A program made the translations under genes and the position numbers. A stretch of 62,513 bases of DNA, the filler included, from Sphacelaria rigidula (taxonomy: Eukaryota), in NCBI GenBank assembly GCA_964200075.2. It is 9 parts of 9 records of this genome, joined end to end, with 100 filler letters (N's around TTAATTAATTAA, not from the genome) between each part and the next. Parts side by side here need not be neighbours in the genome. Positions count along the whole stretch, not along the records: positions 27,831 to 34,687 come from CAXNAA020017737.1; 8 more parts are not named here. One strand, 5' to 3'. Below, one piece after another: positions 6,859-60,290 of the stretch (position 1 is its first letter; every line of letters starts with the position of its first letter). A model generated the notes under the pieces. That model was not told the DNA's origin and made no database searches. It was given only the letters and a program-made list of their open reading frames with translations.

Positions 6859-6958
6859 NNNNNNNNNNNNNNNNNNNNNNNNNNNNNNNNNNNNNNNNNN
6901 NNTTAATTAATTAANNNNNNNNNNNNNNNNNNNNNNNNNNNNNNNNNNNNNNNNNNNN
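6859..6958. other. Artificial contig-joining linker (N44-TTAATTAATTAA-N44); identical linkers at 13817-13916, 20774-20873, 27731-27830, 34688-34787, 41645-41744, 48602-48701 and 55558-55657
   Basis: 100-bp N blocks with a central all-frame-stop 12-mer. The intervening segments are 6858, 6858, 6857 (x5), 6856 and 6856 bp, as expected for size-sorted unplaced contigs. Confidence 0.97.
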
Positions 6959-9600: not shown

Positions 9601-9602
9601 GG

Positions 9603-9663
<61 letters not shown>
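9601..9663. repeat. (GTT)n microsatellite
   Basis: About 20 perfect GTT units; explains the poly-Thr ORF at 9418-9669. Confidence 0.95.
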
Positions 9664-13077: not shown

Positions 13078-13995
13078 GTGACGATACGTGTAGTAAGAAT
13101 AAGTAGGCGGTGAGTCATGCAGCATTTAAATCTTGGCTGTTGGGTGATATCATGCACAAAATAGGGGAAGCTCGATCGTGCAGCATCTGGGTGTTATCTG
13201 TGGTTAAATCAAGTGCGCCAAAAGTGGAAATCGGATCATGCCGCGTCTCAAAGTCAGCTGTTGGGTGCAACTGGCGACATATCGTGGGAATCCGATCATG
13301 GCAATATCTAGTTGTTACCTGTGTTTGTGGAATAATATAACATTTGGTATGGGCTTAGTCATGCACTGTTCGATCCTCACCTATCCTTTGTTTCACGAGC
13401 ATTGGAGTCTCGTCGACGCCGCGCTGCTGATTTGACTGCAGTGTTGCCTGGGGTCATACGATACTGTGAGTAGTGAGTCTTTTACCCTGTGCAGCACCTG
13501 ATGCACCTGAATGTACCTGATTGGCACGTGCGCGATGTTGGTGCTGCAGCTCCGCCGTTCTCCCTTCCCCGCATGCGATCTCATGTCTTGTGCCGACCAC
13601 ATCTGGGGATATGTGTTGTCTTGCGCTGACCTTGCCCTATAACAGTGGGTCCTGGAAAATGGGGTCCATCTACAAAATGAGGTTGAAGTGGAATTTCTCT
13701 TTTGCAGGGATGACGCGAAACACTTAGGACCGAGCGAAGCCATCTTCCCCCCCAAATATGCGCAGCAGTTGAACAGCTGTGGCTAGGTGCACCTAACGAA
13801 TGCGGTGTACACGCGTNNNNNNNNNNNNNNNNNNNNNNNNNNNNNNNNNNNNNNNNNNNNTTAATTAATTAANNNNNNNNNNNNNNNNNNNNNNNNNNNN
13901 NNNNNNNNNNNNNNNNCGCTGTACGCCCACCTCCCCCGGCCCGGGTTTGGGCGGTTTTTTTTTTCTGGGGGGGGGGGGGGGCTATCGTAGAAAGC

Positions 13996-25830: not shown

Positions 25831-28659
25831 AAGAAAAACAGAAAGTATAAGGAGTTAGGGTACGGTTTGGGATCTTCATTGGTACCGGTAACATATTCAA
25901 ACTCATTGTTGTCGGGCAGTAAGTGGCTCAAACGTCGGATAACACCCCTTCAACCTGAGGTTGTTCCGAGAGGGGATGCGTTGACTTTATCCCCGGGGGG
26001 GGGAGGTGCGAGGGGTGAGGGCAGACAAGGGTTCCAAAGACGTGGGGCGTAGTGAGTACGGTCTCACGATTTTTCCCAGGTGTTGAGGGGCATCGCCAAT
26101 CGTATGTATAAGCTCCTGACGGTGCATGATGACCGTCCGCGTGTTTAGAGAGAGGGTGCAACGATATCTTCTCCGGGGTGTCCGTAACCCCGTCAAAACC
26201 AACGACATGCATCACTAGTCACGGCATATTTGTACGGTTCATATTGATACCGGTCACGTGTTCAGTTTCATTGCCGCCCGGCCGCAAATGCCTCAAACGT
26301 CAGACAACACCCTCCTTTCAGCTGAGATTGTTCAGAGAGGGGATGCGTTGATTTCATCTCAGGCAAAGGGAGTGGGGGAAGAACGGGGTCGTAAGGGGAG
26401 AGGATGTGGTGGATATGTTCTAACAATGCTAACGATGCCCCCCGCGTGGTCGGTGGAATCGCCGTTCGTGTGTAGATGCTCACGTAACTAGCAAAAACGG
26501 TAAAAACGCCTCCATCATGAAAGGAACGGGTAAGAAACAGATTCATCCCCGGTTGGGGAGAAATAGGGGTGGGTGGGTATACATATTTCATCGTTTACAC
26601 GTTCCATCAATGTGTTTGTGTGCTCAGGTGCATCGCCATTCGTGTGTAACGAACGGAAACGGTAGATACCGTGAAAATGGAATTTTTGGCGGGATGCGTA
26701 CCTTAAATCGGAGAATAAGGAATCATCTCTGTCTTCAATACTTCAACTATCCCGAAAAACTTGATGTCATCCAACGTATCGCCATGCGCATCGGGCAAAA
26801 CGGTTGATCCCACCCCTAAATTCACGGTAAAAAGCATCCCCCGGGGACGCTATTTTCTAGTCCCCTGCGCCACCATGCACCCCCCCGCGCCTAGATCCAA
26901 CTTCACCAATGTTATTTATCGACCACTATGCGCCATCTGTTCAATTTTAGGCTCTACATACGTTTCCTTGTGTGCATGTGCTGAACTCGACAATGTTTTG
27001 AACGTGGCCTGGAATAGCGTAGAACTCCCCTCGGGCAATACGCTTACCCTCCCCTCGATACTAAGCAACATGGTCCGGGGAACAATCTCTGGTGGTGGAA
27101 TCGAGCAACACCTACCAAGCTCTCGATATCTTCCCCTCCCACCGAGCGGGAAATGTATACATCACGTTGTTCATCACTCGTAACAGGCACGCAATGGATT
27201 GCCCGGTGACTCTACATTTGACATGCTCCAATTTTATCGGACGACTATAAGGTATTTATCTAGACGGGTGCTTTGTACAGGCTGGTTTGCGGTAAATGCC
27301 CGAAATGTTTGCCCACTAGATTCAGAACGCAAAAACTGATCCGATATAAACATCTTCGGTATCCAGTGACCCTCACGAGCAAGCGAGCAGTGTGACATGG
27401 CCAGATATTTTCTTCCGCCCTTTGACGTAGTGCTGGTAGGGAAAATTTCTCTAGACTAATCGGCGGCCTTCAAATTGTTCTGAAATTCAGAGTGCGATTT
27501 TCTAGCTCGATTTTCACCCAATTTCATGACGATTCAAACTTCATTAACCGCCACTAGCTGGGGAAATTCCCACAAAACACAGATTTGAAAATGTTTTGAA
27601 TGGGATCGAGTGATACCCAAAGACGTGGTGTTTCGGTAAATGTGGCGTTTTGGCGCCGTTGGATTCCCACTGATAAATACAAATGCCCCCGTTCCCCGTC
27701 CTCCAGCGAAGGCCATGACCGGTCTTGTCGNNNNNNNNNNNNNNNNNNNNNNNNNNNNNNNNNNNNNNNNNNNNTTAATTAATTAANNNNNNNNNNNNNN
27801 NNNNNNNNNNNNNNNNNNNNNNNNNNNNNNCCGTTGCTGCTTTCAACGACGATCTGACTCCAAATTTCGAGCAACAAATGGCCCAAAATACCCCCCCCTA
27901 TCGTAGGATGACTCTCGTGTTCGAATTAGAGATTTTGATATGGCCAAGGTAATTGTGGTATAGATTGTTTGAACAAAACAACCATGCTTTATCGACAGCC
28001 ACCCGATAGTTGAAATTACGAACCTCCATGTGACGACGAAGGTATTCCGATTATTATGTACAATAAAAGGGTACCCTACCGGTCGGCTACCGTCACCAAG
28101 AACCGAATGCTCACCCTCCTCAGTTTTTTATAGAAAACAAAATTCCGCTCCGGACCCCAAGCAGTGGGTTTTCATTTGTCCCGATCATCTTCCAAGCCAT
28201 CGTTGGGCTCTATATTATCAAATGATTGCACACACAGACGGCATGTTATTGCCAGGTGGCTGGTGAATCTCAGACCAAGAAAAGATTCGAGTTGAAATTT
28301 GACTCATCGACCGCGGTGCGGGTAGTCCATCTGGATGACACATACTTATTTCAAGTGAAAACTGATGCCGATCCAGCTGGTGACCCATCTTCGCGGTCTA
28401 AGGGGGTGTACTCATGATCATGCTTGCCATAGTCATAAGACCATTGACCTCGCATCCCTACAAAGCCGGGACGGAGCACGCCGGGTTTTCGCCGGACCAG
28501 GCGGGTTTTCGCGGTCTAAGGGAGGGACCTAAAGAAATGTTCGTAGATAATGGTTGATGGGGAACATCATGGAATGTTACAAACTAATACTAACACTAAT
28601 CCTAACCCTAACCCCGACATGAGGCGCACAAGACCCTCGGGCGACGAGGGTGCACAGAA

Positions 28660-29076
28660 GAGTGGATTTTCGAAAGTGGGATTGAAAATAAAATGAGGTT
28701 CACCTCAAAAGCCATGCTTTCCCTGACCTTTTATCATGACAAATGACTTTTGCATGGACGACTTCATCCCTCCCGACCCCCCTGAAACTATTCCGGGGGA
28801 TTTATAGCCTTCCGTTCCCCCAAAGGACATGTGCGAAAGCACACTCATGCCTCAATTTCGGGGTGAAAAAAGGACGCTTCATGCATACAAAGTCATGCCT
28901 TCGCACAGACCCTTTGGGGAGACGGAAGGCTAAATATCCCCGGAAATAGGTTTAGGGAGGTCATGACGGAAAAGGACGTCCATGTTAAATTCATTAGACA
29001 TTCACTTAGGTCAGGGAAAGCACACTTGAAGTTGAACCTCATTTCTTGCTTCAACCCCATTTTCGAGACTCCACTG
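28660..29076. mobile_element. Degenerate palindromic (foldback) MITE
   Basis: Arms AGTGGATTTTCGAAAGTGGGATTGAA...GCTTTCCCTGACCT...TAGCCTTCCGTTCCCCCAAAGG mirror CCTTTGGGGAGACGGAAGGCTA...AGGTCAGGGAAAGC...TTCAACCCCATTTTCGAGACTCCACT. Confidence 0.7.
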
Positions 29077-30926
29077 TTATAGATTCCTCTAGGCAAAGTG
29101 TGCGTTGGCAGATTTCAAATCGTCGCGGCAGGCGCCGATTTCTACAACATGTTCTGGACAAGCCGGATCCACTGCTCACCTGTCTCAAACCGTATTTCTT
29201 TTCAAAACTTGATCAAATCTAAATTGAGCAGTCATCCGTGTCAACCATTATTGTGCACGAACATTTCCTGAGGTCTACTGCTCTAAGGGTCAACGAGCCT
29301 CTATTTCTGCTACAAGCCAAAGTGTCGTGAAACAATTTTAAAGGCGCGTGTGATCGTCGCGTTCGAATAAACTGGTCGCTATCAATCGCATCTTCAACTC
29401 TCAATCTCACGAAAACATTGTTGTCCAGGTTCTCCTCCGATCGAGTTGGGTTGTGTGGAGAGACTGTGCTTTGTGCCCCTGTCAACAGGACATCTATATT
29501 CTCGTTGAAGGTCTTCACAAACCACCCTCGACATAAGGGTTTCAGGTGGTGTCTCCACGGCCTGATATCGTTTTTAAATGATTGGTTACCGCATTGCGCC
29601 ACTGCGCCATCCCAGGAGCATTGTGGTTGCCACAGGACCATTGTTTTCGTGTGAAAAAACCTGCGCACACATGATTTGTCGTGAAAATCAGCAACGATCA
29701 AAAATGTAGGAGAAAATGTCGGGAAAAGAGCTCAATTTTTTTGTCCACAGCAGTAACGTGCGTTGGCGAGAAAGGTGAGCTTCGAGGGGCGGAGAGTGGT
29801 CAACAGTGGACATTGTGGACAAAAGGGGTACAAAAATGCCAAGGGGTGGGTATACTCATGATCTTGCATGCCGTCATCATGAGACCATCGATCTCGCACC
29901 CCCACAAAGCCGGGAAGGAGCAGTCCAGGTTTTAGCCGGACTAGGCTCGCGATCACAAGACGCCAAGCGCCGTGAAAGGGTTCAGGAACAAAAACGATCT
30001 ATCGCCCGCAACGTTATCAAACAGAAGGGGTCCTTCTTCGTACCCCGCGTTGCCCACGGCAATGTTTGACTCATAGAGGCCCTCGAAAGTTGGTCAACGT
30101 TGCTTCGCGTACTCCGCCTAGACCGCGTTCGTCTTGCCTTTGCGTCAGTATTCTATTGAGATCGATGCCAGAGGAGCACAAGGAGAGTCCCAACTTGTAT
30201 TTGGTCACTACCGTCCTTTGGCTGAACTGGGAATGGGTCTACCCACTTTTGGCTTTTGTTTCCCGTTCGTCTTACCAATAAACCATGTCATTTCTCGGAA
30301 TGATGCCGGAGTCTCGACGGATCGACGCATTTGTCTTCTGGTACCCTATTACGTATCCGACATTTTGGTACCCTACATTGGACCTTCACTGTCGTACTCC
30401 TTCGACTCGCGTGGAATAGTTCCCGCTACTCAGACCTACATTTTCCCAGAGACAGGAATCAGATACAAGAGGAAAGTCTGAATCTGCCAGTACTCCAACC
30501 CTCACCTTTCGCCCATGCTGATTCCAGAGGAAGCAATTGCGTCAGTACGACGCGGCACTACGAGGTATGACTAGAACTGACCGTTCTACAAGGTAACCTA
30601 CCGAAAGTACTGAGGCAACCAAAAGAGGTATGCCATGGGATCGAAGAGACGAAAATCAGCCAAAATGACTAAACCCATGCCACGGGAAACATGGCTGAAG
30701 ATGATCAGCGATGACACAATAATCTACGAACATGATGAGGCGGCCACCACCTCTCACAGCCACCACCGTCTAGCCACAGTGGCACGGTACCACCCAGAAA
30801 CAACCAGACTGATTTTTATCGCGGAGATTTGTGCGAAACACGACCTCCAAATATATGGATGCTGTTAACTTGCGCTATGCTAAGCATTAGCCGGGACAAG
30901 GGGCGTACACGGTCCCTGTCATCAAG

Positions 30927-33656
30927 CTACCCCTCTCGCGGGCGGGATAAGGATGCGGGCACGTGTCCACAGGGGGCAGACACGCCCAACTCTAACTTCA
31001 CGTTCGCTCCATCTTTACCCGCTGCCACAACAAATACCGGCTCCACTTGCGCTCCCCGGCGTAGCCGCTTCGTGCCCATTCCAATGGAGATGCTACTAGC
31101 CCAGCTCGTTTCCATAGCCGTGCCTCTGGAGCTACCATTGTCCATGCTGTCGCAACTGCTGAGTTGCGCAGTGAGTAGTTTGCCGTTATTTCTCACCACC
31201 TCCGGAACTCGCGCAGGTTCAGCAGTCGTCTTCACTTCCAAGTTCATGCGCGTCTCTGCCGAATCGAAAGGAACCCAATCTGCTGCCGCCGCATCAGGGG
31301 GCTGCCCCAGGGCGGCAGGCGGTGTTGGTGTAACAATTCCACCCCGTCGCCTGGCACGGATGGGTCGCGACCTGAGACGACCATGAATGTCGCGGTCACC
31401 ATCGTTCGCATTAGGACCGGCATCCGATGAATTGCTGCGTCCTTCACCGCGTCCATCGGTACCGACACTAGTCTCTCCCACGGTCAAGTCATCGGTCAGG
31501 TGGTATTTTTCTTGGACATGTCCTGCTGCATTAGACGACACAGCCAATTCCAGTTCAGCATGGACGCAGGTGTTCCCGTGTTCCCGAACCCGGTCGACAC
31601 AGCGATGCGAGGCGGATTGATGATCCATGTCCGTCTGGACGTGTATGGCGCACAACTCCGTCTTCCTGCCACAGGCTACACTGAACCATGATCGTTTTGA
31701 GCAGCGCTCCTCATGGCACCGCGTAGTGTTCACGCCAACCATGTCCGCTTGCCCGTGTGTGGCGCACAACTTCTTCATTTTGCCACCGGCGGCACCGAAG
31801 GATGGTTGTTTGAAGCAGCCTCCCTTGACGCACCATCTGGTTTTTACTTGAACAGTGCCCGCGGGGGCATGTGTGGCGCAAAACTCCCCCTTCTCGCCAC
31901 TCAGTGCATCGAACGAAGGGTGTTTGGAGCAGTCCTCCTTGTCGCACCGCTTGTTTTTCACATCAACCATGCCAGCTGGGGCGTGCGCGGCGAAAACCTG
32001 CGCCTTCCTGCCGCCGGGTGAATCGAACGATGGTTGTTTGGAGCAGCCTTCCTTGCCACACGGCTTGCCTACTGTAGTGACCACGCCTGTCGGGGTGTGT
32101 GCGACGAACAACTCTGCTTTCCAGACTCCGGCTGCACCGAAGGATGATTGTTTGAAGCAGCCATCCTTACCGCACCGCTTGATCGTCACGCCAACCATGC
32201 CAGGCGGGGCGTGTGCGGCGCAAAACTCCGCCTTTTTGCCACTTGCTGTACCGCACGATGGTCGTTTGGAGCAGCCGTCCTCACCGCACTGCTTGCTTCT
32301 CACGTCGACCATGCCAGCCGCGGCGTGTGCGGCGCAAACCTGCGCCTTCCTGCCGCTGGGTGAACCGAACGATCGTCGTTTGGAAAATCCTTCCTCGCCA
32401 CACGGCTTGCCCACCATAGTGACCATGCCTACCGGGGCGTGTGTGGCGCAGAATTTTGCTTTCCTGTCTCCGGCTGTACCGAACGACGGGAGTTTGGAGC
32501 AGCCCTCCTTGCCGCACCGCTTGTGCTTCGCGTTAACCATGCCTACCGGGGCGTGTGTGGCGCAGAACTCCGCTTTTCTGCCACCCAATGCACCGAAAGA
32601 TGATTGTTTGGAGCAGCCCTCCTTGCCGCACCGCTGGCTCTTCACGTTAACCATACCCGCTAGGGCGTGTGTGGCGCAGAACCCCGCCTTCCTGCCACCC
32701 AATGCACCGAACGAAGGGTATTTGAGGCAACCCTCCTTGCCGCACCGCTTGTTCTTCACGTTAACCATACCCGCTAGGGCGTGTGTGGCGCAGAACTCCG
32801 CCTTCCTGTCCCCCAATGCACCGAACGAAGGATATTTGAGGCAACCCTCCTTGCCGCACCGCTTGTTCTTCACGTTAACCATACCCGCTAGGGCGTGTGT
32901 GGCGCAGAAATCCGCCTTCCTGTCCCCCAATGCACCGAACGAAGGGTATTTGAGGCAGCCCTCCTTGCCGCACCGCTTGTTTTTCACGTCAACCATGCCA
33001 GCGGGGGGGGGTGTGGCGCAGAACTCCGCCTTCCTGCCTCGAGCTGCACCGAAAGATGATTGTTTCGAGCAGCCCTCCTTGCCGCACCACTTGTGCTTTA
33101 TATCAACCATGCCAGCCGCGGCGTGTGTGGCGCAGAACTTCGCCTTTCTGCTACCGGCTGCACCGAACGAAGGGTATTTGAAGCAGCCCTCCTTGCCGCA
33201 CTGCTTTTTCTTCGCGTTAACCATGCCCGCCGGGGCGTGTGTGGTACAGAACTTCGCCTTTCCGCCCCCAGCTGTGCCGAACGATGGGGATTTGAAGCAG
33301 CCCTCCTTGCCGCACCGCCTGGTCTTCACTTCGTTCATGCCCGCCGGGGCGTGTGTGGGGTAGAACTCCGCCTTCCTGCCACCCAATGCACCGAACGAAG
33401 GGTATTTGAGGCAGCCCTCCTTGCCGCACCGCTGGCTCTTCACGTTAATCATACCCGCTAGGGCGTGTGTGGCGCAGAACTCAGCCTTCCTGCCAACCAA
33501 TGCACCGAACGAAGGGTATTTGAGGCAGCCCTCCTTGCCGCACCGCATATTTTTTAAGTCAACCATGCCAGCGGGGGGGGGTGTGGCGCAGATCTCTTTC
33601 GTCCTGCTATCGGCTGTACCGGACGACAAGTATTCGAAGCAGCCTGCATCAAACAA
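30927..33656 (-). CDS. EsV-1-7 cysteine-rich repeat protein (~18 repeats plus low-complexity C-terminus); first in-frame ATG at 33566
   Basis: 909-codon open frame. The 38-aa unit GMVxVKxKRCGKEGCxKxPSFGxxGxRKAEFCATHA fits the C-x4-C-x16-C-x2-H EsV-1-7 motif known from brown algae (e.g. IMMEDIATE UPRIGHT) and phaeovirus EsV-1. Confidence 0.9.
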   Translation of the reverse strand: MFDAGCFEYLSSGTADSRTKEICATPPPAGMVDLKNMRCGKEGCLKYPSFGALVGRKAEFCATHALAGMINVKSQRCGKEGCLKYPSFGALGGRKAEFYPTHAPAGMNEVKTRRCGKEGCFKSPSFGTAGGGKAKFCTTHAPAGMVNAKKKQCGKEGCFKYPSFGAAGSRKAKFCATHAAAGMVDIKHKWCGKEGCSKQSSFGAARGRKAEFCATPPPAGMVDVKNKRCGKEGCLKYPSFGALGDRKADFCATHALAGMVNVKNKRCGKEGCLKYPSFGALGDRKAEFCATHALAGMVNVKNKRCGKEGCLKYPSFGALGGRKAGFCATHALAGMVNVKSQRCGKEGCSKQSSFGALGGRKAEFCATHAPVGMVNAKHKRCGKEGCSKLPSFGTAGDRKAKFCATHAPVGMVTMVGKPCGEEGFSKRRSFGSPSGRKAQVCAAHAAAGMVDVRSKQCGEDGCSKRPSCGTASGKKAEFCAAHAPPGMVGVTIKRCGKDGCFKQSSFGAAGVWKAELFVAHTPTGVVTTVGKPCGKEGCSKQPSFDSPGGRKAQVFAAHAPAGMVDVKNKRCDKEDCSKHPSFDALSGEKGEFCATHAPAGTVQVKTRWCVKGGCFKQPSFGAAGGKMKKLCATHGQADMVGVNTTRCHEERCSKRSWFSVACGRKTELCAIHVQTDMDHQSASHRCVDRVREHGNTCVHAELELAVSSNAAGHVQEKYHLTDDLTVGETSVGTDGRGEGRSNSSDAGPNANDGDRDIHGRLRSRPIRARRRGGIVTPTPPAALGQPPDAAAADWVPFDSAETRMNLEVKTTAEPARVPEVVRNNGKLLTAQLSSCDSMDNGSSRGTAMETSWASSISIGMGTKRLRRGAQVEPVFVVAAGKDGANVKLELGVSAPCGHVPASLSRPREG
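31630..33650. repeat. 114-bp coding tandem repeat array
   Basis: GCACCGAACGAAGG recurs at 32704, 32818 and 32932 (114-bp period); units diverge more toward both ends of the array. Confidence 0.95.
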
Positions 33657-34169
33657 CCAGCGCAGATAATCATATTTCGTGCCAATGTGTATGGGAGGTA
33701 CATCGGCATTATAGCATCTTGGTCAACAATGGGACGTAGGCTAGAGTAGACGACAGCTTAAACGTGGAGTCAGCAGGCGAGAACAATATCCATTACGACA
33801 TGGTCGCTTCAGGCGGTACGGTGCATCTTCATAAGGATCACAGTTTCGATGCTGTGACTGCAGCACAGACGATTTGACAAGGGGAGGGGTATTCAACTCT
33901 GAACATGTAGAGAACTCTTCACTGTTGGTGACCCCACATAAGACCGGGTTGATCCATGCCGAGTGAGGCGGCCTCAAAATGTATCGACAACGACGTACGA
34001 CCATTTCACGGGTTCTACGGATAAGACCGAACCGGCCTCATGTCGGGTCAAAAAGCTGCACGTGCTCTCCAGATTGACGGAGAATAGGATCACCACATTG
34101 GATTACTTCATTGATGGCGTGGCTTCATTTCTGCGGTGATACGCACCCCTCCATGATGGGTAAAATGAG

Positions 34170-34687
34170 TTGCGTAGACCATGTGTACACACTAAGTAAG
34201 ATTATTCAGGGTAGGAAAGACCGGGCGGACAACGTAATGTTTCTTTTTGGACGTGCAGAAGACATATGACAGTATGGAGAAATGGGTTGTGGAAGAAGTT
34301 GTGGCAAGCTGGGATCAGAGGAAAGATGTGGAGAATGGTGAAGAAGATGACAGACTGTGCCAAAAGTGCCATGGTACTAGACGGGGGAATATACCAATAT
34401 TTCGATATCTTACAAAGAGTTGCACAAGGATGTACGTTATCTCCCACTTTGTTCAAGGTAATAATCAATGACTTGATGAAAGCAATAGAAGCAGTAAAGC
34501 AAGGGGTAAAGGCGGGTGAAGATGTGATATCAGGATTGATGTTCGCGGATGATTTCGGGGGGATTTCAGAAACGCCAGAAGGACTACAGACACAGATACA
34601 CAAGGCGCTAGAATACACGAGGAAATGGAGAGTGACAGCGAACGTCAACAAATGCACGGTACTCGTCTGTAACGAAGAACGCGTAGT
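34170..34687 (+). mobile_element. LINE family 2 reverse transcriptase fragment
   Basis: CVDHVYTL, DVQKTYD, VWRNGLWKKL, VAQGCTLSPTLF, LMFADDF and KWRVTANVNKC motifs with frameshifts; cut by contig end. Confidence 0.9.
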
Positions 34688-46779: not shown

Positions 46780-47225
46780 CAATAATAATAAAATCATCAT
46801 CATCATAATCATCATAACATAATCATAATCATCAAAACATAATCAGAATCAGAATCAGAATCAGAATCATAATGAAATACAAATGATAATTATAATAATC
46901 ACAATAATCATAATCATGATTATAATCATAATCATGATCATAATCATAATCATAATAATAATCACAATAATAATCATAACAATAATCATAACAATGATCA
47001 TAATCATAATCATAATCAGAATCAGAATCAGAATCATAATCAGAATCAGAATCATAATCATAATCATAATCATAATAATCGTAATAATCATCATCATCAT
47101 AAGAATCATGACAATGATCATCATCATAACAATAATAGTCATAATAATCATAATAGTCATAATAATCATAATCATAATCATAATCATAATCATAATCATA
47201 ATCATAATCATAATCAAAATCATAG
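46780..47225. repeat. Compound (ATAATC)/(AGAATC)/(ATC) microsatellite, intronic
   Basis: ~440 bp of ATC-based 3- and 6-mers; source of the poly-Ile and DY-repeat ORFs. Confidence 0.95.
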
Positions 47226-57124: not shown

Positions 57125-57497
57125 GAGTCAAGGCAATCTTATGCTGCGCGCCATTAGCATCGTCAGCACAAGGGCAAAAGACGAGGTATTCGTGGTGGCG
57201 GCGGCGGATACTCCGGCGGTGGAGGGTCGCAGTCGAGTCCTCGGCAGCAACAGCAGGGGCAGCGGCGTCAGCATGGGCCTAGTTATAGATCCGGCGCCGC
57301 CGTAGGTGCTGCTGCTCCGCAACGGGTGGTGAAGGTGGAACCGACTTCTACAGTGTCGAACACTGCGCCGGCGCCGGTGGTGGCGCCGGCGGCGACACCG
57401 GCAGCAGCGCCAGGCGCGACGCCTGCTGACGCGCTGGCCGCAGGTTCGCCAAATTCTTGGTCTGCTGGCTGGGGGTGATACCCGCCGGCGGTGCCGT

Positions 57498-60290
57498 TTG
57501 CACCTGCCGGGGGCGTCTTCGCCTGCGCAGCTTGCGCAGTCGTGGCGTCAAGTGGGATTAGCGGCGCATCGGTCGGCCAATAAATTGCCAGAGGAGTTTG
57601 CGGACAGGTGCGTTCCTGCGGAGCTGTGCCTTCCAAATCAACGGGAGCGTGGAGCCATTGTGGTTCAGGCTAAGTGGGATTCTGGCGCCCACTTGACGGG
57701 TCATGTGAGTCTGTCGGTACAGGTTGGAGAGATGCTGGAGCGTCTTCTCCCGGGGGTGCCGCTGCACATTCCCTTTTCGCTCGTGGCGCGGCAGGCCGTC
57801 ACCGCGTCGAGTCAGCATCTTTACGTCACAGAGCGTACTGTTCCGCTGCAACTAACTTTCACGACTTCCTGGGGGCCGGCGCAGTTGCCTCCGATCTCGT
57901 TTGCGATCATGTCGGGGTCGGACGGCGTCATTCTTTTGAGGTTGTCGATGCTTCAGGATATTGGAGTCAACCCTTGGCGGTTGTGGGACTCCATGAAGAC
58001 GCGGATGTCTCCGCCTGGTCCATGCTTTGAGACGCCCGCCGTTTTGGGCAGTCGTCGCGTGAGCTTGTCGGTGGATGCTTTTCAGGAGGCTGGAGGGCAG
58101 GTGACCGAAGAGCGGGATGCGGCGGTGGAACGCTTGGTAGAGTGCGGCCCGTATATGTTCATGGACCAGACGGACGAGGAGTCCGCCCGGAAGGTCGCGC
58201 TGGAGGAGAGCGTAACGGATGCGGGGGTGACAGGCCTCAGCGTCTCTAAATCGGAGCGCCTGCGTGGCATATTGCATTGCCGCGTCAACGCGTTTCGTCG
58301 TGAGCTGCGGGGTGACGCCCCTGCGCGCGTGGAGCCCATGCGTGTTCAGCCAAAACCTGGGGCGTCCGCGGCGAAGACGAAGCCGCGGCGGTACGATCCA
58401 GTGAAGCGGAGTTGGTTGGCGTTGTGCATGGCGGCTTTTTTGGCGCTCGGGTTGGTGTCACGAAATTTGCAGTCGGGGTGGTCCAGTCCAGATACGGCGT
58501 TTCCGAAGATGGCTGCATCGTGGACGGAGAGCAGGCTACAGGTGTGGGCGGCAGCGAAGGATCTGGTGGCTCATGTCGCGAAGCCGTTCCATCCGCGTCC
58601 TGATTGTCAGGTGTCAATATTTCCGGATGCATTTGAGGGCCATTGGGGTAGTTTGGTCATGCAGGTGCCTACAGTTGAAATTCAAATGCCTGTGCGCGCT
58701 GTGGCTGTGTATAGTCCGTGTCAACCTGATGACTCGATGCCGTTCAAATCTATCGTCCGCCAAGCGCAACGAAAAGACCTTGGGGCCGGAGATGTGGATG
58801 TGCAGTCTTTTCGAGTCGGACGTTGGTACTGCTATCTTGGACAAGGTCTGTTTCGTGTGCATGTGCGTGACCGAAACGTTTTGTGGATTCCGAGTTCTGA
58901 CAAGCAGTTGCAGGTACGTCTGATGATTCGCGCGCACATGCGCGACGCCGGGCATCGTAGTGTAGCTGCGACGCTCGTGGGCTTGCAAGAGTTTGATGTC
59001 TGGCAGGGGATAGAAACTCATGTGCGCGAATTTGTCCGCCAGTGTCTTCACTGTGCTGACTCGAGGGCGGGCGATGTTGTTCCCCGCCCGCTCGGCGAAA
59101 CGGTCCATGGGACCACGCCGGATGAAGTCGTTCATTTTGACTTCTTGTACGTGGGCGAGAGTGTCCCGCTAGCTTCCCAAGGTTTGTCGGAGGATGCTGG
59201 GCTTCGATATATTTTGGTAACCATGAATGATTGGAGCAACTTTGTGGCTCTGGAATCAGTAGCAGTGTGTACTGCCGAATCGACCGCTGCATCTTTGCTG
59301 AATTGGCGCAAAACTTTGGGGGTGTCGCGTGTGTGGGTGAGTGATACCGCCACGCATTTCAAGAATACGATCCTGGCTCGATTGCGAGAGACTTTACGCG
59401 TTAATCACCAGTTTGCGGTGGCGTACTCTCCGTGGTCTAACGGTACGTGCGAACGCATGGTCAAGGAAGTAGTTCGTGCTCTTCGCCCTATTCTTCTCGA
59501 GCAGCGTAGAGCGGTTTCCGAGTGGGTGGACGTGTTGCCGGCGGTGCAATGGGCGCTTAATACAGCGTATCGTCGTCGTTACGATAGTACGCCGTACTAC
59601 GTGATATTTGGTCGTGCCCCTCGGACGTCTTTCTCGGTGCTGGCGTCTTTGTCGGCGGGGGAGTGGAAGTGTGATGTTCTGGACGATGTTCAAATTAAGA
59701 GTGCATTGCAAGGGGTCTTGGACTTGCAAGAACGATTCCACGTTCAAGTGCAGGAATGTGTTGCCGCTGAACGTGCGCGTAGACGTGAGGGGTCCTCATC
59801 GGGGCTGGAATTGCCGAGTTTTCAGGTAGGCGACTATGTCTTGTATGCACGCGTGCGTCGTCCGGGTGTTACGCCCAAGTTGATGGCGACGTGGGCTGGC
59901 CCATGGAGAGTGGTCGGTGCTCACCACCGGCACGTATTTGAGACTCAAAACATTGTTTCGGGTCGTGTTCAGACCGCCCATGTAGCTCGTTTGCTTTTTT
60001 ATGTAGACTCCCAGCTTAATGCTACGGCTGACATTAAGGACGTGTTCCAGCATGCTTTCAATCAGGGGCAATTTCAGATGGCTGGTATTGTCCGAGTGGC
60101 AGAAGCAGACAATCGTTCGTTAATCGTGTTGGTCGACTGGCTTGGTTTCGAAGTTGAGGAGCGTACGTGGGAGCCTTTCAAGGATATTTTTGAGGCCGCT
60201 CCGGAATTTCTTATGAAGGAGATGCGTAAATTGCGCGTGACTCGTGCCGTTGCTGCTCGCATTTTGAATGAGTTTGGTTTTCAGTTGTGA
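57498..60290 (+). CDS. pol: pol-derived ORF: aspartic protease, truncated RT and RNase H, integrase (HHCC, DDE, GPW), chromodomain
   Basis: WDSGA; AHMRDAGH...CLHC; VHFDF...WVSDTATHF...SNGTCERMV; WAGPWRV; LVDWLGFEVEERTWEP. No YxDD motif. Confidence 0.9.
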   Translation: MHLPGASSPAQLAQSWRQVGLAAHRSANKLPEEFADRCVPAELCLPNQRERGAIVVQAKWDSGAHLTGHVSLSVQVGEMLERLLPGVPLHIPFSLVARQAVTASSQHLYVTERTVPLQLTFTTSWGPAQLPPISFAIMSGSDGVILLRLSMLQDIGVNPWRLWDSMKTRMSPPGPCFETPAVLGSRRVSLSVDAFQEAGGQVTEERDAAVERLVECGPYMFMDQTDEESARKVALEESVTDAGVTGLSVSKSERLRGILHCRVNAFRRELRGDAPARVEPMRVQPKPGASAAKTKPRRYDPVKRSWLALCMAAFLALGLVSRNLQSGWSSPDTAFPKMAASWTESRLQVWAAAKDLVAHVAKPFHPRPDCQVSIFPDAFEGHWGSLVMQVPTVEIQMPVRAVAVYSPCQPDDSMPFKSIVRQAQRKDLGAGDVDVQSFRVGRWYCYLGQGLFRVHVRDRNVLWIPSSDKQLQVRLMIRAHMRDAGHRSVAATLVGLQEFDVWQGIETHVREFVRQCLHCADSRAGDVVPRPLGETVHGTTPDEVVHFDFLYVGESVPLASQGLSEDAGLRYILVTMNDWSNFVALESVAVCTAESTAASLLNWRKTLGVSRVWVSDTATHFKNTILARLRETLRVNHQFAVAYSPWSNGTCERMVKEVVRALRPILLEQRRAVSEWVDVLPAVQWALNTAYRRRYDSTPYYVIFGRAPRTSFSVLASLSAGEWKCDVLDDVQIKSALQGVLDLQERFHVQVQECVAAERARRREGSSSGLELPSFQVGDYVLYARVRRPGVTPKLMATWAGPWRVVGAHHRHVFETQNIVSGRVQTAHVARLLFYVDSQLNATADIKDVFQHAFNQGQFQMAGIVRVAEADNRSLIVLVDWLGFEVEERTWEPFKDIFEAAPEFLMKEMRKLRVTRAVAARILNEFGFQL

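Follow-up and report, generated by a model that had tools for sequence, protein, structure and literature searches.

EsV-1-7 repeat arrays of Sphacelaria rigidula as probable poly-zinc-finger DNA binders with two fast-evolving positions per unit

EsV-1-7 genes form a family of 31 to 335 members in brown algae and their relatives, and the repeat has been called a possible novel zinc finger (10.1101/2024.02.19.579948). The family is the largest orthogroup in brown algae (10.64898/2026.04.27.720984) and includes the developmental regulator IMMEDIATE UPRIGHT (IMM), which has five repeats (10.1101/2024.02.19.579948). What does a much longer array bind? The question is raised by a gene in a stretch of 62,513 nucleotides from Sphacelaria rigidula (GenBank assembly GCA_964200075.2), the whole of which we call the window. 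We read the product of this gene, with a probability of about 0.55, as a nuclear DNA binder of the poly-zinc-finger kind, with a preference adjusted at positions 18 and 7 of each unit and an output that passes through SUMO. Nucleic-acid binding is now its most likely role, given nuclease fusions among viral relatives and tails that carry psi-K-x-E motifs and a nuclear localization signal (NLS).

The array contains 17 full units spaced exactly 38 aa apart and one degenerate partial unit upstream, so that the count of about 18 given in the initial annotation was a fair one. Tandem Repeats Finder (TRF) reports a period of 114 nt, 16.4 copies and a score of 1668, and Pfam assigns 17 stretches to PF19114 (EsV_1_7_cys; E 1.5e-197, 639.5 bits against a cut-off of 25), confirming the family identity first proposed; the repeat is the same as that of IMM and EsV-1-7. 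With the G of GMV numbered 1, the units follow the pattern C-x4-C-x16-C-x2-H, with Cys at 10, 15 and 32 and His at 35. The array as such is far beyond chance. Of its scaffold, described at the outset as near-invariant, 12 of the 17 units keep all four of these residues, one having been lost in each of units 2, 5, 11, 13 and 14. The units are Lys/Arg-rich, as had been noted (K+R 110 versus D+E 44 in 646 aa). Units 1, 2, 6, 7 and 8 are recent duplicates, differing at 4 to 16 nt out of 114, and the C-terminal units are degenerate.

The gene is unremarkable within its family, a large brown-algal one that was known before, and its best named matches bear brown-algal labels. A search of the same genome returned 4575 first-look candidates, and all 150 that were scored lay above the cut-off. 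We fetched 80 stretches, taken from a search with the tail (44 matches from 40 scored of 53 candidates) and from the best Pfam hits, a sample that leans toward long arrays and strong hits. Together with the window, these yielded 1099 strict units in 81 loci; degenerate or off-length units were dropped, and the zinc-ligand columns are invariant in this set by construction. The longest frames hold 4 to 37 units (median 15), and 10 of the 81 loci are split over frames. The arrays in this sample are thus long, and no family-level difference from other EsV-1-7 proteins was found. The closest paralog is 82 to 83% identical in its flanks, yet its array can be aligned over just five strict units, which suggests that arrays turn over faster than flanks.

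Variable positions within the unit

The initial annotation placed the variation in the triplet after the second Cys and in the loop after SFG. Within the array, column entropy is 2.61 bits at position 7, 2.26 at position 4, 2.21 at position 18 and 1.82 at position 30; the loop reaches 1.3 to 1.6 bits, and position 17, the middle of the triplet, is K in all 17 units. Of that map, position 18, the third residue after Cys2, holds up. Positions 16 and 17 and the loop (23 to 27) are constrained, with ratios of nonsynonymous to synonymous change (dN/dS) of 0.4 to 0.8 across collinear tests (about 0.6 to 0.8 at 16 and 17, 0.4 to 0.75 in the loop), and the scaffold lies at 0.1 to 0.5 across the family.

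For selection we used 1056 units, drawn from 76 loci with frames of 450 aa or more. Among 250 independent nearest pairs, dN/dS was 0.66 overall and highest at positions 18 (1.77), 7 (1.68), 37 (1.65) and 6 (1.52). Positions 6 and 37, high in these nearest pairs, do not look selected in collinear pairs (37 = 0.88-1.12). Only positions 7 and 18 stay above 1 on both counts when 154 collinear unit pairs (15 gene pairs) are compared, with 1.61 (1.46-1.76) and 1.19 (1.07-1.31) at position 7 and 1.50 (1.25-1.79) and 1.18 (1.03-1.34) at position 18. A set of 22 hand-picked gene pairs (160 unit pairs, without intervals) gave 1.77 per nucleotide and 1.34 per amino acid at position 7 and 1.82 and 1.39 at position 18, and the neutral control by the same method, 4673 tail codons, gave 1.00 and 0.92. 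The largest differences between units of one array likewise fall at positions 7 (0.75) and 18 (0.73). The variation is position-specific and above neutral at these two sites rather than spread evenly at neutral rates, which we take as moderate evidence of diversifying selection there.

The residues accepted at position 18 are themselves suggestive. Compared with mutational expectation, G (10 observed, 95 expected), P (11, 68), E (3, 33) and D (1, 19) are depleted and K (88, 39), L (71, 36) and Y (86, 15) enriched. The favored residues (Q, R, H, K, Y and L) are of the kind whose side chains typically contact bases, and G, P, E and D are avoided. In 518 viral-type units, too, R and Q are the leading residues at this position. 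A small discrete code, of the kind that a modular recognition array had brought to mind, does not emerge: there are 167 different residue pairs at 7 and 18, and the top four account for only 261 of the 1056 units. Within a unit the two positions are only slightly associated (excess 0.056 bits, z 4.3), perhaps through shared descent, and neighboring units vary independently.

Relatives, tail motifs and the likely ligand

One pointer to a ligand comes from relatives in which the array is followed by a further domain. An RPD..ExDExQH..RxNP motif lies after the array in 56 of 79 homologs of 512 to 1630 aa, mostly giant-virus-like, and in 77 of the 120 homologs listed among 211 shorter matches. In the model of one such protein, P0003, the domain resembles Vsr bound to DNA (1cw0; Z 9.3, root-mean-square deviation [rmsd] 2.9, 111 aligned) and the homing endonuclease I-Bth0305I (3r3p; Z 8.6, rmsd 2.9, 95 aligned), scores only slightly above the caution line of Z 8. 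The top Foldseek rows for the domain are mostly nucleases, none reaching E 0.001. D446, D461, E462 and H465 are invariant in 57 sequences and may correspond to the EDxHD catalytic residues. Nearly all Atlas clusters with the domain are viral. Similar domains occur in other Nucleocytoviricota clusters, together with Zf_WRKY19 in 55% of one cluster and with zf-C2H2 in 16% of another.

These giant-virus proteins (L131-L210, P0003 and relatives) combine several EsV-1-7 units, up to 15 strict ones, with a Vsr-like domain that has no Pfam family, and some are already named Endonuclease in UniProt. They are candidate natural zinc-finger nucleases. Like the EDxHD/Vsr-like homing endonucleases, of which I-Bth0305I is one, they have N-terminal repeats and a C-terminal Vsr-like domain and occur in varied neighborhoods, often beside core genes. 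Around 80 IMG/VR loci, neighbors were varied (83 of 113 neighbor frames scanned, 39 with a Pfam match), the major capsid protein and RNA polymerase subunits being represented by 4 each; such settings are expected for free-standing homing endonucleases. That 79 of the 80 viral loci carry the nuclease motif is circular, the motif having been the search pattern, and is not used as support. The repeats differ, being NUMOD helix-turn-helix elements in I-Bth0305I and Cys/His fingers in the viral proteins. The window gene is without a nuclease: the motif is absent from its tail, which has no Pfam domain, and a search of its genome with one protein query did not find the viral domain. An Ectocarpus Mariner transposase with an N-terminal EsV-1-7 domain is reported (PMC12477816), and in P0021 the array is joined to Tudor-like domain matches (PF21743, E 1.7e-8) that hint, by sequence, at a chromatin context.

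In place of a nuclease, the algal proteins have tails that are near neutral (dN/dS 0.92-0.96 in two tail families) except for short motifs. Tails of at least 80 aa were present at 77 of the 81 loci and fell into six BLAST clusters (38, 34, 2, 1, 1 and 1). They contain 132 psi-K-x-E motifs, against a shuffle mean of 6.4 and maximum of 15, with at least one in 75 of the 77 tails and at least two in 57; an NLS-like motif occurs in 64, against a shuffle mean of 9.5. By their consensus patterns, these motifs are putative SUMO acceptor sites and NLSs. In the two tail families, dN/dS is 0.38 and 0.04 at the K and E of psi-K-x-E, 0.95 and 0.69 at its x position, and 0.18 and 0.21 in the NLS-like motif. 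C-termini of the nuclease type, used as a control, show no psi-K-x-E enrichment (18 versus 20.9), and among other eukaryote proteins 8 of 19 carry the motif (9 motifs versus 2.6 expected). The tails thus appear to present the consensus in a conserved, unstructured context, as SUMO substrates do. SUMO-like domains are encoded in the genome, where open frames of 456 to 516 aa on G000:C20944 and C16901 (L213) hold two Rad60-SLD domains each.

The shape of the array was approached through metal-free AlphaFold models of window units 6 to 10 (mean predicted local confidence, pLDDT, 69.7; predicted template-modeling score, pTM, 0.32) and of P0003 (88.8 and 0.51). In both, the units consist of short strands with one turn, at the His, and none has a helix reaching four residues, which argues against the TALE/PPR-type helical superhelix first envisaged. 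The models fit flexibly linked beads rather than a solenoid, although the low pTM can also reflect model failure. Matches of the array among viral models had high rmsd and template-modeling scores of 0.28 to 0.67 among the top 17, EsV-1-7 coming first at 51% identity, and 4 of the 29 matches at E ≤ 0.001 were named Endonuclease. For the repeat itself, Foldseek gave no clear match to a solved structure (best E 0.99), a sequence-profile search returned no credible solved relative, and Atlas features gave no usable hit; this lack does not show a new fold. Mean-field coupling over 1596 units (effective number 842) did not resolve the strand register.

We infer from these results a mechanism in which each 38-aa unit would fold round one Zn2+ held by C10, C15, C32 and H35, the units being strung like beads rather than stacked, and in which the basic array would bind DNA along a long site, its fast-evolving positions 18 and 7 tuning the sequence preference of each unit. 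Unequal crossing-over and conversion would reshuffle the units, so that paralogs would diverge in target faster than in flanks. The tail would take the protein into the nucleus and bear one or two SUMO acceptor sites, which most likely recruit repressive or other chromatin factors. The module also occurs in giant-virus proteins, coupled there to a Vsr-like nuclease in the manner of a free-standing homing endonuclease, and the algal copies would have retained the targeting array without the nuclease; any direction of transfer between the two would likewise be a matter of inference. A bolder version, which we consider doubtful, would make the arrays a re-programmable DNA-reading scaffold with a per-unit code at 18 and 7, the viral proteins zinc-finger nucleases, and hundreds of algal members SUMO-dependent silencers of transposons and inserted viruses in a KRAB-ZNF-like defense.

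Several results weigh against a sequence-reading DNA binder. Under a context-dependent neutral model that counts each amino-acid difference once, nearest pairs give 1.18 (0.93-1.44) at position 18 and 1.10 (0.89-1.32) at position 7, and the same count puts position 37 higher (1.28, 1.03-1.58) and position 6 at 0.97. Fourfold divergence is 0.164 in arrays and 0.121 in tails, and "collinear" units are not always true orthologs. The pair statistics ignore phylogeny and gene conversion and are not a formal phylogenetic test. Position 7 falls in the inter-unit linker, before Cys1, and mean-field coupling offers no support for a contact between 7 and 18 (rank 498 of 595). Motif columns in the tails were picked from the consensus, which favors low dN/dS, and 11 of the 19 other eukaryote proteins are without psi-K-x-E. 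The specificity of I-Bth0305I comes mostly from its nuclease domain, its N-terminal repeats being largely nonspecific (PMC3239194), and the available literature on EsV-1-7 yielded no binding, zinc or SUMO experiment.

Much of this would suit a low-specificity clamp on nucleic acid or chromatin, in which rapid change at 7 and 18 reflects relaxed constraint and conversion among units rather than selection for new targets. The conservative estimates that overlap 1, the greater synonymous divergence of arrays, the nonspecific NUMOD repeats of the structural analog and the 5 of 17 window units that have lost a ligand all agree with it. Against this, tail codons of the same types as 7 and 18 reach only 0.95 to 1.10 per nucleotide, well under 1.77 to 1.82, and within arrays 7 and 18 show more diversity at their first and second codon positions (0.42-0.51) than is seen at fourfold sites (0.27); conversion alone should not raise a neutral site above synonymous diversity. 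We therefore regard a clamp as rather unlikely, though it is the first of the alternatives that we would keep in mind.

The ligand could also be RNA. A sequence-variable protein whose ligands are CCCH-like, and whose targets in the nucleus are transcripts of transposons, inserted viruses or genes, would accord with the C3H ligands and the basic, aromatic-rich units. RNA-binding RAP and mitoribosome chains are also among the structures that resemble the Vsr-like fold (Z 7.5-7.8), a further point against DNA. The top fold matches of that domain are DNA endonucleases, an EsV-1-7/transposase fusion exists, and TTP-type CCCH fingers are spaced C-x8-C-x5-C-x3-H, unlike EsV-1-7, all of which makes an RNA binder improbable in our view.

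Equally improbable is a variable receptor for pathogen or self proteins, as proposed for the LRR and TPR arrays of algal ROCO and NB-ARC genes. An arms race would be consistent with the expansion of the family and its diversifying positions, and the best solved match of the repeat is only a weak RING hit (VIA, Z 3.1), which with weak LIM-like hits recalls protein-binding fingers. The array protein has no Pfam signaling domain, acids are excluded at position 18, the array is strongly basic, and viral relatives are fused to nucleases; Ectocarpus members have no other Pfam domain either (10.64898/2026.04.27.720984). Of the two roles raised by the initial annotation, nucleic-acid binding is favored by the fusions and tails, if not by the TALE/PPR layout from which it was argued, and immune recognition gained no positive sign.

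Gene model and neighboring sequence

The window strings together separate contigs, each about 6.86 kb long, by N runs with a 12-base spacer (6859-6958, 13817-13916, then every ~6957 bases), and neighborhoods spanning these joints are not genomic. The array gene sits on contig G000:C17737, where an open frame of 931 codons (33722-30927, minus strand) contains the whole array and tail; judged by this frame, the two share a single, terminal exon (Table 1). The first ATG of the exon is at 33566, and a further in-frame exon upstream of 33643 may exist. For splicing at 33643 there is a weak hint, its basis being one contig end and the conservation of an acceptor motif. Of 35 family-1 loci examined, 28 have a [CT]GCAG[GA] site 5' of the array, mostly in homologous context (five more were too close to the locus edge). 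Runs were compared as contigs over 33340-34687: one contig of run X1, whose RNA status is only guessed, ends at 33645 with 301 nt lying elsewhere; a contig of run X5 reads straight through 33563-34196, and runs X2 and X8 also have a low-depth contig within the predicted intron.

Table 1. Features of the array gene and of other parts of the window
Feature	Position	Strand	Basis or remark
17 EsV-1-7 units, C-x4-C-x16-C-x2-H, 38 aa each; positions 7 and 18 hypervariable	31632..33569	-	Pfam, TRF, alignment
Probable coding sequence, one exon	30927..33566	-	879 aa from first in-exon ATG; open frame and ATG context
Degenerate partial unit 0, probably 5' untranslated region	33570..33643	-	Paralogs L053 and L055 carry in-frame stops here
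Predicted splice acceptor (pyrimidine tract and TGCAG)	33644..33665	-	Exon starts at 33643
Intron or upstream sequence co-duplicated with gene	33666..34149	-	71-83% identity to 6 paralog loci
234-aa tail, near-neutral except short motifs	30927..31631	-	No Pfam match; shared with paralogs
First psi-K-x-E site of family, degenerate here (MNLE)	31236..31247	-	Family alignment
KRLRR, monopartite NLS-like motif	31056..31070	-	In 64 of 77 tails; dN/dS about 0.2
VKLE, psi-K-x-E SUMO-consensus motif	30990..31001	-	Intact; family constraint
Long interspersed nuclear element (LINE)-type reverse transcriptase fragment	34215..34687	+	RVT_1, E 1e-11; cut by contig end
Short interspersed repeats	28402..28505, 29372..29422, 29827..29954		Common to several fetched paralog loci
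127-nt inverted repeat, possibly a miniature inverted-repeat transposable element	28715..28841 / 28896..29022		76% complementary
Putative chromovirus-like long terminal repeat retrotransposon pol remnant	57333..60290	+	985-codon frame; integrase zinc-binding domain (E 2.3e-6), weak C-terminal chromodomain (E 0.002)
AATCAT minisatellite	46781..47224		74 copies
GTT microsatellite	9602..9663

The public gene model from the same contig, P0195, spans just the last 347 aa. Public models of the family hold 1 to 6 strict units, against a median of 15 in open frames, so that annotation may undercount units and make arrays look truncated.

Could the copy in the window be a decaying duplicate or a selfish repeat without function? 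Its C-terminal units are degenerate, its first SUMO site is lost, tails of the family are near neutral, and the LINE fragment, which has very high depth in all four runs compared, lies 570 nt upstream of the exon. The 931-codon frame is open nonetheless, the NLS and VKLE are intact, the scaffold is under constraint family-wide, and no terminal inverted repeats were found around the gene, so that we think decay very unlikely. The mobile-element reading of the locus was set aside on the same absence of terminal inverted repeats.

Place among repeat-protein families

TALE and PPR proteins resemble the array in having about two hypervariable positions per repeat of 34 to 38 aa and neighbors that vary independently. 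EsV-1-7 units differ in lacking a helical hairpin, a fixed superhelix and a small set of dominant residue pairs, and no sequence match to either family was found; the Pfam scan of the exon likewise contained no signaling domain, zf-C2H2 or KRAB. The nearer likeness is to animal fingers. In KRAB-ZNF and C2H2 poly-ZNF genes, too, the fingers lie in one exon. Metazoan C2H2 poly-ZNF, KRAB-ZNF and FiNZ-ZNF families share with EsV-1-7 a lineage-specific expansion, tandem fingers, positive selection and an accessory regulatory part (PMC10547256). The finger itself is different, with C-x4-C-x16-C-x2-H spacing over 38 aa, ligands in the order C, C, C, H and no recognition helix in the models; the canonical C-x2-4-C-x12-H-x3-5-H finger with its recognition helix is not found in the window array. 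Nor does the known exon encode KRAB or another folded effector domain; its C-terminal part offers linear motifs alone. In its mode of action the protein most likely resembles a C2H2 poly-ZNF, yet by family it is an EsV-1-7 protein.

The idea of EsV-1-7 proteins as zinc-finger transcription factors is already in print (PMC12629598, citing Macaisne 2017), and PMC7457493 and PMC12993054 likewise present a domain whose function is unknown and which may be a zinc finger or a transcription factor. In the passages and abstracts covered, we found no report of two hypervariable positions, SUMO/NLS tails or a nuclease link for EsV-1-7; Macaisne 2017 may discuss localization or viral fusions.

Our results point to two residues (7 and 18), one SUMO site and one NLS as mutable targets, and the cut sites of the viral array-nuclease proteins would give a direct readout of what an array recognizes. 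The role of the largest gene family in brown algae can thereby be tested directly. If the proposed DNA-binding role is true, brown algae would have evolved a poly-zinc-finger regulator family independently of animals, and the array would offer a new candidate scaffold for DNA targeting.

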